A stretch of DNA of 64,000 bases from Pseudomonadota bacterium (GTDB lineage: Bacteria > Campylobacterota > Campylobacteria > Campylobacterales > Sulfurimonadaceae). The stretch spans positions 224,001-288,000 of the forward strand of contig JAZDQA010000013.1 in the NCBI GenBank assembly GCA_043797085.1. Reading direction: 5' to 3'. Position numbers: made by a program. Below are positions 27,301 to 36,300 of this stretch, one piece after another (position 1 is the stretch's first letter; each line of letters begins with the position of its first letter).

Positions 27301-30300
27301 CCGTAATATCCGCATTACTAAATCCTGCTACCGCTTCAGAAAAAGTGATCGTGACGGTAGCCGTTTCTCCACTATTAAGTAAACTGTCTGAAAGCGCAAT
27401 TGTTGCAGTAGGTGAAGTGGTGTCAGCCACAACTGCATTTAAATGCGCTGTTGCCGCTACCTCTGTAACCAATGTAACACCTGTAGGTGTTAATGCCGTT
27501 TGTAATGCAGGATCAAGCGCTGTTTGAACATCAATAACGGTAGTAATCAATGCAGCAGTAGCTGGAGCGATAGTGATCCCATTAGCTGCATTGCCATCAC
27601 TATCAAGAGATTGCAAAAACTGGGCGATATTAACAACTTTTGTATCAGTAGTATTGGTTCGAAGTACACCCGCAATTTCCTGAATAGTGACAATATGATC
27701 CGCATTAATGTTAGCAGTATTAAACGTCCCGATCGTTGCCTGTCCTACTTTAAATGTTACTGTATCCCCTGCTTTATATGCGAACGATCCTAATGATCCA
27801 TCAGCGAGCGTAATACCTGTAACACCCGTAAGTCCACTGCTCGTCGTATACGATACCCCCTGAACCAAGCTGTCAACTAAATTTGCGGTTAATGTTGTGG
27901 CTGCTGGAACTGTTGTCGTGCTTCCGCCGCCACCTCCACCGCCAGCTGCAGCGGCAACTCCGCCCGCAACTGCGAGAATCCCTACACCCCACCATGCACT
28001 CGTCGACATAACAGGAGTAGGAGCTGCAACTGGGGCTACGCTCACTGCGCCAAGCTCCATTGCGCCTGCTTGAGTAGTACTGTAGTTGGCGAAGGCGCCG
28101 CTTGAGTCAATGCCTGAGATTTGAACGGTTTGGTCATACGAAGCATACTCATTCAAAATCACAGAAGGATCTGTTGCGCCGTCTGCAAAAATATGGAGAT
28201 CTTTATTGACCATTTTTGTTGTTATCTTTTTTGGTGGTTGTCCTGTTGAGGCATCGACCAAAACAATTCTATCGCCGCTCATAACCATTTGTTGCGTAAG
28301 CTGTGTCACGCCATCTATTTTTTTGCCAACCACCATTGTTTTCATCATTTTAAAAACCTTTATAATACGAAATAATTATTTACTCTAGGATAAATCGAAA
28401 GAAAATCAAAACAGCATATCAATATTAGTATTATAATAATATTAAAACACTATTTAATATTTAAAATAGTTACAAATAGGAACAAGAAAAGGTTACTTTA
28501 CCGTTTGAGCAAAATATCTACACTCAAATCAACTTGATCGCGTACCGTTAGAAACATCATTGTGATCGGTTTGATTCCAAAATCGGTCATTTTTAGTGTA
28601 CTTGCGGTTTTAATGTGTACTTTCGAGCCTTCTTCGATAATTGTTCCATCAAAACTCAGCGGTTTAGTGACACCGTGCAAACTCATCGTCCCCTTGAGAG
28701 TATAAGCATTTCCCCCTTTGGCAATAACCTCTTTAACTGCAAAGACCGCTTTGGGAAAACTATCGGATTCGAGGGATTGCTGCATGTGTTCATCGCGCTT
28801 TTTATTATCACTGACAAGATCCCCCATCGAAACTTCAATCGTCCCTTTTAAGCTGGACGGATTTGTGTCCATGACTAAATGCGACGTTGCCCGCTTGGCG
28901 ATTGGGTCAATCGTGCTGTCTCCAAATACTTCCGTATGCGCTTTAATCACGCCGGAATCAAAACTCAAATTTCCTGCGAACATTGACGTCGCCAATATCA
29001 TGGCGAGTGAACTAACTTTTTTCATACAGTTCTCCTAAAATAAAATGGATAGATAAGGACAAAAATGCCCAAAAGAATGACAACAATCCAAAGTTCATGC
29101 GTCAAAGCGACTAAATTGGCTATCGACGATGCACCCCAGCCTACCCCTACCATAGTAATTCCAATCACTCGAACATCGCCCATCTGAGTCAACTCGCGGA
29201 ACAATAAAACATTATAATATGAAATAACAATCGGATAAATAATAGCGAGCAATACCGGCTGATGAGAGTAATAAGCAGCATAACTTAGGGCAAAAAGTCC
29301 CAATATTATCCCATTGCTTCGCATCAATGTTTTGCCATAACGAAACGCCAAATAAACTCCCAAGAGATGCGATATAACAATCAGTGCCATATAGTGCCGC
29401 CAAACATCCATCTCATCTGAGCGGTTCAAGGTTTCAAACAAAGCGGAATCTGCAAAAATCCACACCATCATCACTGCTATCACTTTAAAATTGAGGGGAG
29501 TATGGTGGCGATGTGAGCGCATAGGCAGGCTTGAAAAATACAGTGCTGCCATTGAAATACTGGGTAACATAATTGCTATGATTCCTCGCTGTTGGAACGG
29601 ATACGTATAGAGGGCTGTTCCTACCGCGTACGAGAGAGCAAGTCCCAGTGCCAGATTTTTTCGGCTTTGTTCACGAAAGACATAGAGCATCAAAGGGGTT
29701 GTGTAGCCCACGATAAAGCCCAATACCAATAAAAGTCCCAGTGAATAATCGGGATAAAACCACGAAAGAATAATCTGTGCGATAAACATAAAAAAAAGCT
29801 CTTGCTTAATCCCATGATGCTTCCAATACGCACTCACAATACTCCCAATCACCCCTCCAATAGGAAGCGTATAAAGATCGTGTATGTGAGAGTCAAACGC
29901 TCCCACGACTCCCGTTTGTGCAATCAGGAGATAATAAAGCAACTGAGAACTAAGAACAATGACGAGCATATTCATTTACGCAAGCCTAAGAAATAAATCA
30001 TGGCATACAGACCATCATAAAAAGCAATCAACAATGCCAACTCATCCAAAATTCCTGCCATATACAAAGCGGCGAACGTCGAAGAGATGAGGAATCGGAT
30101 GATGGCACTGAGGCTTGCGAGACGATCTTCATCCCCATGCAATCCAAACCAGTGAATCATCCCCGTCCCCATGACAAAGGCAAACACGATATACTCATAC
30201 GTTGCGGTAAACGTAAACCCAAGCAAGCCAAAAAGCCAGCCCCCTGCGATCACAAGAATCAGCCCGCCAAAAGCGTCCCCTAAAAATCCCATCAAATGAT

Positions 30301-33300: not shown

Positions 33301-36300
33301 AAATCGCAATCCTTGTTCTTCATCACGAATCAGCAAAACCGTATGGGCGTATTTTCGCATTTTGGGGAGAGCAAATGTTTCCGTAATAAAATTGGGCATT
33401 TGACTAATATCCGCAACAAATGCGGCATTATTTTTTTTCAAATAGCCCTTATCCAGCGTTGCCAAATACTCATTGACCGTCGCACCTGTCCCTTTTTCAA
33501 ATGCCATAATCAACGTCTTTGGCATCGCTTTAAGTGTGGTACGTTTACCAAACTGATCTTCCAAATCCAAGGGCATAACTGACTGCCCTGTTTTATACGG
33601 CGCTCCAAAAAGGCTTAGTGCCAAGAGTGCGAATACTATAACTTTTTTCATAACAATCCTTTCGTTAATTCATCCAAAGTGTACCCTAACAAGGGTAAAT
33701 GATTATTTTTTACGAAGGATACAAAGAGATTATGAATTTTTGATGAAAGGCGAATTAACGGCGATATAAAGGTTAAATACAATAAAATCTCTTTGCACTA
33801 TTTAAACTCAAACAATCAGGTACAGATGAAATTCAAATCAAATACACTATTTCTTATCGCTGCTTTTATTCTTTTCACGCTCGCGGTTACTCTCTTTAGT
33901 TATTATGAATACCGTCAAAATAAAATCGAGCTCTATCATCAAATCGACGAGAAGCTTCTTGCTTCGGCGGAAGGAGCTTCTCTCGTTTTACCTCCTGATT
34001 TTTATAACCGTGCGGTTGATCCTTCATCCATTGCGCAAGGAGAAGATGACTCCAATATTGACCGCTTAAGCCGTTTTGCCAAAGGGCAAAAAGTCGTGTA
34101 TATCTACACCATGATCCAAAAAAATGACACGATTTATTTTACCGCTTCAAGCGGTACGGAGGAGGAACGTAAAAGCGGTATCAACCTCACCCGTTATTTT
34201 GATACCTACGATGATGCGAGCGATGAGCTGAAAAATGTTTTTCGTACCCAGAAAAAACAGTTTGCCGAATATACAGATAAATGGGGAACTTTTCGAAGTG
34301 TTTTTATCCCCATGAAAAGCCAAAAAGGGACCCTCTATGTTATCGGGGCAGATATTCAAATCAATACAATCAAGCAAACCCTTAACGATAAAGCCCTCAA
34401 CCTCTTGCTGCGTCTTGCTGTTGTCCTCGCGCTCACTCTTCCGTTTCTCACTTGGCGTTTACGGCAGCTCAATAGCCGTTTATTGGAAAAAAATGGCACG
34501 CTCGGGCAAGAACTCGAAGAGGGAGAAAAAAATCTCAGGCAGCGGAATATTGAACTTCAAACTATTCTTGATGCCGCACAAGAAAGTATCTGCTTGATCG
34601 ATAAACAAGGTACCGTCCTGACGATCAACAGTACGGCTGCCCATAGACTGGGGAAAACGCCCTCAGAAATGATGGGAAAATGCGTTTATGATTTTTTCCC
34701 TTCAGAAGTAGCGCAACAACGACGTATCAAGATAGAACAAATATTTAGTACCGGTATCGGAATAAACGTTGAAGACAGCCGAGAGGCGATGTTCTTTTCC
34801 ATCAATTACTATCCTGTCTTCGATAGAAACAATCAAGTAGAATCTGTTGCGGTATTTGCACGAGACATCACCGAGCAAAAACGCGCCAATGAACGTATCC
34901 AGCACCTCGCAACGTTTGATTCTCTCACCGGATTGCCCAACCGTCAAAAGCTCTTGCAGGATTTAGAACAGCATCAACCCAACGGATGTGCAATCTTTAA
35001 CATTGACAATTTCAAAGAGATCAACGATTTTTTCGGAATCGCGGCAGGTGATACGCTACTTTGTACTGTGGGTGACTGGTTTAAAACAATGGGCTTTTCC
35101 CCCTACAGAATCGGAGGGGATGAATTTGCCATTTTATTTTATGAAACGATGACTCAAAACAAACTATACAGTCGCATTACCGCGCTCATGTCTGCACTGG
35201 ATGAAGAACGCTTTCTTGTCGAAAATGAAACACTCGATGTTCATATGAGTACCGGAGCGGCACTGGGTACGCATAAACTTCTCACCCGTGCCGACATCGC
35301 ATTGCATAGGGCTAAAGAGCAAAAAATTCCGATCGCTTTTTACGAAGAATCTGAAAATGTAGAAAAACAATATCATAGCAATATCGCCATGACAAGCACC
35401 ATCCGCAAAGCATTAGCAGGAGGACGTATTCTCTGCCATTATCAGCCTATTGTCACAATTTCGACAGGGAAGATTGAGAAGTATGAGACGCTAGTGCGAA
35501 TGATTGATGAAGAGGGGACTCTTATTATGCCGCTGCAATTTCTGCCGATTGCCAAAAAAACAAAACTTTATCCCCGCATTACCAAAGAGGTCATTCATCA
35601 AGCGTGCCATCTCTTCAGCAACCGCACTGAAGAGTTTTCTGTTAATATCTCGATGTATGATATTCATGATTCTTCTACGCTGCAAGAGATTATTACCACC
35701 ATTACACAAACAGGGACAGCATCTCGAATTGTTTTTGAAATTCTAGAATCGGATGGGATTGAAAACTATCAAGAAGTGGCTCAATTTATCAGCAAAGTCA
35801 AATCACTTGGAGCCAAGATCGCCATCGATGATTTCGGGACAGGGTATTCCAATTTTGAGCATATACTCAAGCTCGATGTGGATTACATCAAAATCGACGG
35901 TTCACTGATTCGGGAAATCACAGATAATCCACGGCACCGCATCATCGTTGAAACGATTGTCGATTTTGCGCAAAAAATTGGGGCGAAAACCATCGCCGAG
36001 TTTGTCAGTGATGAGACGATATACACTACGATCAAAGAGATTGGAGTCGATTATTCCCAAGGATATTATACCGGCAAGCCAGAGCCGCTTCAGTAAATCG
36101 TTTTATTTATGCGTAATTGTCTTCAACATTTTTTCGATCTCGCCGTGCTGTTCGAGCGTTAGAACAAAACTTTCATCCATCATCTTGTCCAAATGGTTCA
36201 TCTCGGTGAGGGTAATGCCTAACGGATCTTTTTTCGCTACTTTAGCAATACCTGAAGTTACGGTGATATTATCGAGTTTTTTACCCGAATGTCGGACAAA

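Follow-up and report, generated by a model that had tools for sequence, protein, structure and literature searches.

Three histidines, one on helix 6 and a His-His pair on helix 7, bind CuB in all haem-copper oxidases (HCOs; PMC3578206), and gNOR is the sole HCO family in which one of the three is replaced (PMC11214002). YceI genes have been described as generally linked, and sometimes fused, to genes for di-haem cytochrome b561 (PMC9113575). A meningococcal YceI homologue binds ubiquinone-8, and the b561–YceI pair LcoA–BcnA of Burkholderia is proposed to keep YceI-bound quinone reduced, quenching lipid peroxyl radicals in the membrane (PMC9113575).

The window analysed here, 64,000 nucleotides of a Sulfurimonadaceae genome (contig JAZDQA010000013.1), carries an HCO subunit-I homologue encoded together with a YceI-family protein. 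The genome-wide survey's note had placed six genes at 28498–33651 on the minus strand, and open reading frames A–F were recovered there with overlapping ends. The overlaps are 4 bp each, except for 23 bp between C and D, counted from the TTG start of D. A metal-dependent hydrolase gene in the window is included below, as its orthologues adjoin the cluster in most relatives.

33193..33651, minus strand: gene A, 152-aa periplasmic protein (ORF and translation)
32117..33196, minus strand: gene B, MacB/FtsX permease (Pfam MacB_PCD and FtsX)
31485..32120, minus strand: gene C, ABC ATPase, LolD/FtsE-like (Pfam ABC_tran)
29972..31507, minus strand: gene D, HCO subunit-I homologue, 511 aa (predicted fold and hhalign)
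29022..29975, minus strand: gene E, 317-aa 12-helix MFS-like membrane protein (AF2 and Foldseek)
28498..29025, minus strand: gene F, periplasmic YceI-family protein (Pfam YceI)
11373..12305, plus strand: MBL-fold (Lactamase_B_2) metal-dependent hydrolase (82% identity to the neighbour gene of relative locus L002)

Neither a CxxCH motif nor any Cys occurs in the six proteins. None of the six genes encodes a NorC, CcoO, CcoP, CcoQ or cupredoxin partner, and Pfam detected no MacA/HlyD adaptor domain among them. Genes A, B and D and the E/F junction have matches of 100% identity among contigs of a groundwater RNA library, a weak hint that these are expressed. Near the operon lies a TolC-like gene (23183–24448), which is attributed to an adjacent adhesin/type I secretion island because adhesin genes adjoin it.

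Gene D is read from the TTG at 31507 as a protein of 511 aa. Two in-frame ATG codons are alternative starts: the one at 31516 would give 514 aa, as in most homologues, and the one at 31543 would give 523 aa. In the AF2 model, residues 1–396 form a 12-helix HCO core and residues 397–511 form four extra C-terminal helices. The model quality reproduces that of the survey (pLDDT 84.9, pTM 0.84), and pLDDT is below 50 at residues 301–305, immediately ahead of the haem His pair. The top Foldseek matches are again cbb3 CcoN chains (8smr_E, 9g83_t and 3mk7_A; E 1.7e-7 to 4.5e-6, TM 0.56–0.62, 15–17% identity). With VIA, model residues 1–396 give Z-scores of 26.0 to NorB 4xyd_A and 25.8 to CcoN 9g6b_A and 8smr_E, and 368–387 residues are superposed with an r.m.s.d. 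of 3.7–4.7 Å (model residues 1–396/402). At the level of the predicted fold, the gene D product belongs with subunit I of the HCO superfamily.

The Pfam COX1 profile (PF00115) remains below its cut-off on D, as previously observed (E 6e-8, 32.4 bits versus 34.8). Among relatives it scores 23.8–26.6 bits in four Sulfurospirillum-like sequences and exceeds the cut-off in one (47.7 bits, genome G324). TIGR00780 gives 28.3 bits against a cut-off of 583, and the PDB profile match is 6xkw_n (cbb3; E 1.8e-4). CcoN is the best and the sole significant sequence-level relative of D across the PDB profile, TIGR00780 and hhalign searches. The hhalign probability of 76% given earlier for this pair was not recovered, the rerun yielding 68% (local) and 63% (global); the profile match of D to the NorB-like protein of its own genome has a probability of 9.8%. 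The real CcoN and a second HCO are indeed separate genes elsewhere in the genome (346 and 223 bits), and the count of 566 homologues was reproduced.

The haem-binding histidines that the survey had considered retained, H49, H307 and H309, are each present in 136 of 136 sequences, in an alignment with identities reaching down to 40%. They align with P. stutzeri CcoN H60, H345 and H347 in both local and global hhalign runs. From the cbb3 structure, we take H60 (helix 2) and H347 (helix 10) to be the low-spin haem ligands and H345 (helix 10) to be the high-spin haem ligand. By this alignment, D most likely binds a low-spin haem b through H49 and H309 and a high-spin haem b through H307. R230, H299 and H452, also listed as invariant, are so (136/136 each), but H181 only nearly (135/136). 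In addition, hhalign pairs H299 and D302 with CcoN H337 and D340, and R373 with a CcoN Arg. Invariant polar residues are also found in the four extra C-terminal helices (Y403, D411, H452, R471 and D498).

At the copper site, local hhalign places P. stutzeri H257 and H258 (helix 7) opposite I229 and R230 of D, in line with the survey; R230 is found in 136/136 sequences. The global alignment uses a different helix-7 register, with H234-P235 opposite H257-H258. The assignment of H181 as a kept helix-6 CuB ligand had to be dropped: in both runs the CcoN His (P. stutzeri H207) lies opposite D183, which is present in 136/136 sequences, and H181 lies two residues upstream, opposite a Tyr of CcoN. Because the helix-6 ligand position is Asp, the loss of the copper site is fuller than the survey held. 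CcoN W203 and W204 align with G179 and P180. Y223 of D (136/136) aligns locally with the C-family Tyr251, with Asp at the cross-link partner position, in a helix whose register is ambiguous. The survey had further described one His as left on helix 7, at position 234 or 229. This holds for 117/136 sequences, a frequency that stems from the heavy sampling of Sulfuricurvum, but fails in most diverse loci: among 17 loci drawn from five families only 4 have any His within residues 216–240, as do only 4 of the 13 representatives that share less than 60% identity. It is confined to Sulfuricurvum-like and Sulfurospirillum-like sequences.

The sequence and fold evidence all agrees with a di-haem HCO member devoid of CuB/FeB, as the survey had proposed, with no conserved His at the three copper-ligand positions. 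Judged from the alignments, D quite probably holds two haems and no CuB, and its CuB/FeB site appears to be replaced by a putative invariant polar pocket of H181, D183, Y223 and R230.

Gene A has an N-terminal signal-peptide-like segment and no Pfam family, NCBIfam family or PDB sequence match; Atlas leads to AhpC-TSA and YtfJ_HI0045 (score 0.91) indicate that its fold may be thioredoxin-like. Gene B combines MacB_PCD (PF12704, 49.3 bits) with FtsX (PF02687, 65.9 bits). Its closest solved relatives are MacB, YtrF, LolF and FtsX, and it falls far short of the equivalog cut-offs for LolCE, MacB and DevC. Gene C matches ABC_tran (PF00005, 115 bits), its top NCBIfam family being LolD (187 bits versus a cut-off of 308). 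Together, B and C constitute a MacB-type (type VII) ABC transporter. Gene E has no Pfam or PDB sequence match; its model (pLDDT 91.2, pTM 0.89) comprises 12 short helices and retrieves the MFS transporters SV2A, VAChT, VMAT2, OxlT, MdfA and GLUT3 in Foldseek (E from 4.4e-5, TMq 0.45–0.69). The matched proteins are all much longer than its 317 aa. Gene F belongs to the lipocalin-like, polyisoprenoid/quinone-binding YceI family (PF04264, 73.6 bits versus a cut-off of 23.7), with PDB relatives PA0423, E. coli YceI, TT1927b and entries named 'polyisoprenoid-binding protein'.

The D family is small and isolated, with members detected in 37 of 401 Campylobacterota genomes. No published description of it was found in the literature, and a published per-genome HCO table holds no category for it, the Sulfuricurvum and Sulfurospirillum rows examined giving C, cNOR, gNOR and A counts only. 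B, C and D are adjacent in 17/17 diverse loci from five families; tblastn found E in 16, F in 15 and A in 12 of the same loci. The linkage of D to a MacB-type transporter, an MFS-like protein and YceI is thereby confirmed across five families. The six-gene operon first described needs some correction: the order varies between families, with three arrangements in all, the position of A varies, and a phosphoesterase is the usual seventh gene. A phosphoesterase of either of two unrelated folds adjoins the cluster in 16/17 diverse and 37/44 close loci, the MBL type in 36/44 close and 4/17 diverse loci and a calcineurin-like type in 12/17 diverse loci. The MBL hydrolase listed above is orthologous to the gene that immediately adjoins YceI in most relatives, and is displaced by about 16 kb here. 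An OmpR-type regulator and a HAMP histidine kinase stand beside the cluster in 9/17 diverse loci. No fusion forms (D–YceI, B–D, C–D or other) were found, and no haem-uptake or haem-degradation genes were present among the neighbours scanned.

We do not read D as a respiratory O2 or NO reductase. The reading preferred here, which we put at slightly less than an even chance, is that D represents a separate copper-free clade of the HCO superfamily and supplies the redox function of a conserved envelope system, probably an undescribed cell-envelope redox system. D would pass electrons to a lipophilic substrate on the periplasmic face of the membrane, with menaquinol as the probable donor because no cytochrome c partner is encoded. 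The ABC transporter B2C2, the mini-MFS protein E, periplasmic A and the YceI carrier F would extract, move or present this substrate, whose nature and direction of transport we infer, and the associated phosphoesterase would process a phosphorylated form of it. A specific role in handling quinones or lipid oxidants, suggested by analogy, is possible but doubtful. Since haem, peptides and drugs are also exported by transporters of the MacB type, the system might instead have a role outside redox chemistry. In its most explicit and rather improbable form, the proposal would make D a metal-free haem enzyme on an oxidase scaffold, its distal pocket (His/Asp, Arg and Tyr) being nearer in kind to that of peroxidases and of cytochrome c nitrite reductase than to a binuclear centre. 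It would pass electrons from membrane quinol to lipid hydroperoxides or peroxyl radicals, or to YceI-carried quinone, at the core of a new ATP-driven envelope lipid-repair machine made up of the type VII ABC extractor, the mini-MFS protein, YceI and the phosphoesterase. If so, D would be the first HCO-superfamily member to work without any CuB/FeB site.

D could alternatively still be a binuclear-centre enzyme, with non-haem Fe, or Zn/Cu, on H181, D183 and a variable third ligand (H234, H229 or Y229, perhaps E241), performing a divergent NOR-like reduction of NO, O2 or peroxide. The nearly invariant H-x-D pair H181/D183 opens helix 6, a His stands at 229 or 234 in the majority of sequences, NorB and CcoN score equally as structural neighbours, and a gNOR with Asp for an active-site His is considered NO-reducing (PMC11214002). 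However, helix 7 has no His in 13/17 diverse loci and 9/13 representatives, so that the family as a whole conserves no three-ligand site, and an invariant Arg occupies the expected place of a metal ligand. The operon without NorC, CcoO, a cupredoxin partner or CxxCH, and the low profile probability to the genome's own NorB-like protein, likewise make this reading unlikely.

Still less probable is an exporter of haem, another tetrapyrrole or some other hydrophobic molecule, in which D would be a haem-binding partner or reservoir without turnover and YceI the periplasmic acceptor. The MacB-type pump would then act in the manner of the haem-extracting HrtBA type. D directly follows the permease and ATPase genes in 17/17 loci, it begins before the ATPase gene has ended, the solved proteins closest to B (MacB, LolF, YtrF and FtsX) are permeases of the extractor type, and YceI is a hydrophobic-ligand carrier. 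Against this, the HCO haem-ligand and propionate-region residues and the polar distal pocket are all invariant in D, which catalysis or electron transfer explains more easily than storage, and the scanned neighbourhoods hold neither haem-uptake or haem-degradation genes nor B–D or C–D fusions. We regard it as very unlikely that D is a cofactor-less pseudo-enzyme whose HCO scaffold has been turned into a structural or ion-conducting membrane component that might, for instance, link the ABC transporter or the neighbouring two-component system to proton flow or sensing. Loss of the copper site, the invariant mid-membrane charges of the extra helices (D411, R471 and D498) and the regulator and kinase genes in 9/17 loci would fit such a role, but the three haem-ligand histidines are invariant down to 40% identity, a conservation not expected without haem.

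D and its operon can be set beside several known systems. With cbb3 CcoN (P. stutzeri 3mk7, P. aeruginosa 8smr_E), D shares the 12-helix core (Z-score of 25.8, about 380 residues aligned), the haem histidines (helices 2 and 10), the counterparts of H337/D340 and, by the local alignment, the Tyr251 position (Y223). It differs in having D183, I229 and R230 in place of the CuB histidines, in the loss of W203/W204, in its four extra C-terminal helices and in scores far under the family cut-offs; it lacks ccoO, ccoP and ccoQ neighbours, and its genome has an ordinary ccoN elsewhere. The NORs (cNOR NorB 4xyd/3o0r, qNOR and gNOR) equal CcoN in structural similarity to D (Z-scores of 26.0 and 25.5), but their FeB ligand set of three His and one Glu is missing in D, as is NorC. 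NORs are without the cross-linked-Tyr oxidase chemistry. The carboxylate that replaces an active-site His in gNOR is a precedent for D183 (PMC11214002).

Like the type VII systems (MacB, LolCDE and FtsEX), B joins a MacB periplasmic core to an FtsX four-helix domain, and its LolD-like ATPase is a protein of its own; unlike MacAB-TolC, the operon contains no MacA/HlyD adaptor, and the linkage of B with an HCO-like protein is obligate. The closest working analogy, drawn through gene neighbourhood, is the cytochrome b561–YceI pair (LcoA–BcnA; yceJ–yceI loci). In the genome studied here, none of the three PF01292 cytochromes adjoins any of the three YceI genes. The D system has an HCO fold instead of the four-helix b561 fold (PF01292) and includes further components, namely a type VII ABC transporter, MFS-like E, periplasmic A and a phosphoesterase, whereas the likeness lies in a predicted di-haem integral membrane cytochrome encoded with a periplasmic YceI lipocalin.

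Six open reading frames (ORFs), A–F, lie head to tail on the minus strand within 28498–33651, where the genome-wide survey's note had reported a cluster:

33193–33651, minus strand: gene A, 152 residues, signal-peptide-like N-terminus, without a family match
32117–33196, minus strand: gene B, MacB_PCD and FtsX permease
31485–32120, minus strand: gene C, ABC ATPase
29972–31507, minus strand: gene D, haem-copper oxidase (HCO) subunit I homologue
29022–29975, minus strand: gene E, 317 residues, without a family match
28498–29025, minus strand: gene F, YceI protein

Adjacent ORFs overlap by 4 bp, except for C and D, which overlap by 23 bp if D begins at TTG 31507, a possible start 9 nt past a GGAGG. 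Translation could instead start at an in-frame ATG, at 31516 or 31543; the first of these fits the 514-residue length of most homologues. The six proteins (1,725 residues) contain neither cysteine nor a CxxCH motif. Cysteine-free ORFs make up 13.8% of the genome's ORFs of at least 200 residues, with a background cysteine frequency of 0.9%; orthologues of A–F in 17 other genomes are cysteine-poor, though not cysteine-free (85 of 26,766 residues, 0.32%). A promoter and terminator scan of 28000–34200 yielded no more sites than shuffled sequence. A PAS-GGDEF-EAL protein encoded divergently upstream of the operon (33793–36096, plus strand) lies close to the cluster in just 7 of the 44 close loci and is therefore probably not part of the system.

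The D family is compact and isolated in sequence space: an exhaustive search of 1.84 billion cluster representatives returned 50 matches at E ≤ 0.001, five of them full-length with 40–67% identity and the rest pieces, and none a full-length ordinary oxidase. A word-indexed search lists 566 homologues, named 'hypothetical', 'cbb3-type cytochrome c oxidase subunit I' or 'cytochrome c oxidase subunit 1-like', the named ones mostly from Sulfuricurvum. D scores 32.4 bits with Pfam COX1, under the 34.8 cut-off, and 28 bits with the ccoN equivalog, the cut-off of which is 583. The AF2 model (21 sequences; pLDDT 84.9, pTM 0.84, with a weak stretch at residues 301–305) is placed by Foldseek closest to cbb3 CcoN chains (E 1.7e-7 to 4.5e-6, TM 0.56–0.62), followed by ba3 oxidase and NORs. 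VIA-align gives Z-scores of 26.0 with NorB (4xyd_A), 25.8 with CcoN (9g6b_A and 8smr_E) and 19–21 with A-family oxidases and qNOR, every match being confined to residues 1 to about 396; residues 397–511 are predicted to form four further helices outside the 12-helix core. No fused form of D was found among proteins of 896–2555 residues, which is weak evidence.

The ligand positions were compared in an alignment of 136 sequences, made up of the query, 17 translations of genome loci and 118 stored database proteins of 470–560 residues; of the 169 proteins stored, the remaining 50 fell outside that length range and were dropped. Fifteen positions are invariant in all 136 (H49, D183, Y223, R230, E241, W242, Q245, H299, H307, H309, R373, Y403, D411, H452 and R471), and H181 is kept in 135, with one Arg. 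The family profile was aligned by hhalign with CcoN, numbered by mapping the genome's own CcoN onto that of P. stutzeri (3mk7_A), both locally against the single CcoN (probability 68%, E 4.8e-5, 335 columns) and globally with 136 family against 30 CcoN sequences (probability 63%, E 9.3e-6). Both runs pair H49 with H60, G182-D183-N184 with G206-H207-N208, H299 with H337, D302 with D340, H307 with H345 and H309 with H347. We take H60/H347 and H345 of cbb3 CcoN to be the ligands of the two haems, and Y251 to be the cross-link tyrosine.

CuB is bound by His207, His257 and His258 in all HCO members, according to PMC3578206, and gNOR is the only family with one of the three CuB/FeB histidines replaced, according to PMC11214002. 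Since D183 stands opposite H207 in both runs, an invariant Asp occupies the helix-6 copper ligand position. H181, which had been described as the helix-6 ligand offset by one residue, in fact precedes D183 by two residues and faces Y205. In helix 7, the local alignment sets Y223 opposite Y251 and I229-R230 opposite H257-H258, and the global alignment, with low column confidence here, sets H234-P235 opposite H257-H258; at most one His is left in either register. The single helix-7 His reported earlier at 229 or 234 is visible in totals dominated by Sulfuricurvum (position 229, I92/H11/L10/Y10 and others; position 234, H106/G24 and others, in 136 sequences), but it is not a family feature: any His within 216–240 occurs in 4 of 13 representatives below 60% mutual identity and in 4 of 17 loci from five families. 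Judged from these alignments, the copper site has been lost more fully than previously described. The main alternative is that a non-haem metal site survives on H181-x-D183, a reading that fits most Sulfuricurvum sequences but does not fit the whole family. In the preferred reading, with the copper site lost, the invariant His/Asp-Arg-Tyr pocket of D presumably resembles the distal pockets of haem peroxidases and nitrite reductase.

The respiratory oxidases are separate genes, as the survey's note had held. Contig 13 carries an ordinary ccoN (346 bits) about 30 kb ahead of the window, and contig 4 encodes another HCO (460 residues, 223 bits); the D-family profile matches the latter with a probability of only 9.8%. 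The genome thus has D besides the respiratory oxidase, not in its place; CcoN occurs in 56 of 61 Campylobacterota genomes sampled. Of the 401 Campylobacterota genomes sampled, 37 have a match to the D-family profile, spread over 14 of 63 genera (families f1, 7/34; f4, 5/20; f7, 12/23; f11, 11/19; f12, 1/4), with no matches in f2 (0/118), f3 (0/158) or seven smaller families. Named records with close relatives are Sulfuricurvum, Sulfurovaceae, Campylobacterales, Helicobacteraceae and 'Epsilonproteobacteria' metagenome-assembled genomes, as well as Sulfurospirillum diekertiae and Arcobacter sp. Campylobacter cj1660–1665, beside the P19 iron-uptake genes, presumably also combines an ABC transporter with thioredoxin-like proteins; a tie to that cluster was considered and set aside; none of the 118 f2 genomes gave a D-family match.

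Several look-alikes were also discarded. In the accessible part of the per-genome HCO table of PMC11214002, 9 Sulfuricurvum and 14 Sulfurospirillum rows each list C = 1 with an occasional A, cNOR or gNOR, and none of these rows holds a surplus count that would fit D. The 'A' counts of Sulfurospirillum multivorans-like genomes, considered as possible D genes, are probably real A-type oxidases, as two of four Sulfurospirillum-like genomes encode a genuine 559-residue COX1 protein (489–494 bits). The 'additional CcoN' of some Sulfurimonas is probably a different gene; PMC4584964 groups it with Aquificales and Actinobacteria CcoN, for which oxidase activity is demonstrated. Separately, Sulfurospirillum-like genomes carry a 429–431-residue ORF with a weak COX1 match (20–25 bits, profile positions 307–401), which may be a second divergent oxidase-like family:

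G317:C1:1959007–1959285, weak COX1 match
G191:C1:1590554–1590835, weak COX1 match
G336:C1:1810319–1810594, weak COX1 match
G070:C1:1617544–1617822, weak COX1 match

About 15 kb around D was searched in 17 genomes of five families with the six window proteins (tblastn, E ≤ 1e-5). The reported operon conservation holds: all 17 loci have B, C and D side by side in this order, 16 have E (the locus without it is at a contig end), 15 have F and 12 have A. The genes are arranged in three ways (A-B-C-D-E-F, B-C-D-E-F-A and E-F-B-C-D-A), and linkage kept through rearrangement argues for a functional unit. Among 44 closer loci, several cut by contig ends, D occurs in 44, E and F in 43 each, B and C in 41 each and A in 31. 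Twelve of the 17 diverse loci have a calcineurin-like phosphoesterase next to the cluster, nearest to YaeI and LpxG but below their cut-offs; an MBL-fold hydrolase (Lactamase_B_2) takes this place in 4 of the 17, as well as in 36 of the 44 close loci, and overlaps the end of gene A by 4 bp in locus L089. Two unrelated phosphoesterase folds at one place suggest a phosphorylated substrate.

In the window, about 16 kb of adhesin and secretion genes separates the MBL orthologue from the YceI gene, which directly adjoin in most relatives. This block (12278–28348) looks like an inserted adhesin/type I secretion island, and a Big_12 match occurs at its position in only 3 of 44 close loci:

11373–12305: MBL orthologue, 82% identity to the neighbour gene in locus L002
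12278–28348, minus strand: gene block, including a 2513-residue repeat protein, a 389-residue ORF and a 701-residue ORF
23183–24448, minus strand: TolC-like OEP protein
24533–28348, minus strand: Big_12 protein, 1271 residues

In 9 of 17 diverse loci the cluster is followed by genes for an OmpR-type regulator and a HAMP histidine kinase. Arcobacteraceae-like and some other loci show this arrangement (L078, L080–L084 and L091; for example L080:11266–13312), and in three loci an HD_5-domain protein comes after the cluster; all of these may be dedicated regulators. A gene for an MtrC/MtrF-like multihaem cytochrome lies just upstream of the cluster in L089 (1873–3645) and is absent from the other loci examined.

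Among proteins of solved structure, B is closest to MacB, YtrF, LolF and FtsX, and the cluster encodes no adaptor protein. The model of E (pLDDT 91.2) has 12 short helices and matches MFS transporters at the fold level only, so that the earlier term 'mini-MFS' serves as a description of the fold and not as a family assignment. A gave weak language-model leads only, to thioredoxin-fold families. Profile searches of the PDB with A and E found no matches, and Pfam scans of all their orthologues gave scattered chance-level matches only. F has an ordinary YceI domain; modelling of D in complex with mature YceI (residues 19–175) returned 'no answer' (score 0.00), which counts neither for nor against binding. 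The genome's third YceI paralogue (G000:C12:7409–7792, locus L126) is encoded divergently beside a radical-SAM CofH/MqnC-like gene. Mqn enzymes make menaquinone by the futalosine route, and this neighbour is a weak hint of a YceI–menaquinone tie in this organism.

Eight assembled contigs of a groundwater RNA library (X1) match the cluster at 100% identity. They span the junction of E and F, three stretches of D, one of B, and the whole of A together with the start of B, ending 20 nt before the ATG of A. A second library (X4) contains diverged relatives only, at 90–95% identity, and runs X21 and X22 gave no matches. The X1 contigs fall short of proving transcription, as carried-over DNA may contribute and the genome may derive from this very sample.

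By sequence, D is a variant inside the known HCO superfamily, within an undescribed seven-gene envelope system; a full-text literature search, covering journals outside subscription, found no description of the clade. The three CuB/FeB histidines are treated as the signature of the whole superfamily, and a conserved, expressed-looking clade with both predicted haem sites and none of those ligands would indicate that the scaffold is usable for other chemistry, making it a natural test case for the contribution of the second metal. That D is constantly tied to an ABC transporter of the mechanotransmission type, a lipid/quinone carrier of the YceI family and a phosphoesterase points to an envelope system that has yet to be studied, carried by sulfur-oxidising, microaerophilic Campylobacterota of oxic–anoxic interfaces. 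The pipeline label 'cbb3-type cytochrome c oxidase subunit I' on D genes would inflate metagenome-based predictions of aerobic respiration.

MacB/Lol-type transporters take hydrophobic cargo from the outer leaflet, as established for LolCDE and MacB. Together with the precedent of cytochrome b561–YceI pairs and the place that D would take in them, this suggests that D may reduce a lipophilic oxidant or quinone with electrons drawn probably from menaquinol, and that the B/C transporter, E, A and YceI may handle the lipophilic molecule. In this genome, with three b561-type and three YceI genes, no b561-type gene lies next to a YceI gene. As described in PMC9113575, YceI genes as a rule occur in linkage with those of a di-haem cytochrome b561, in some cases as a fusion, a meningococcal YceI homologue binds ubiquinone-8, and the Burkholderia b561–YceI pair limits membrane lipid peroxidation, the cytochrome being proposed to re-reduce YceI-bound quinone. 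The window cluster would differ from that pair in its di-haem membrane scaffold, the predicted one of D standing in place of b561.
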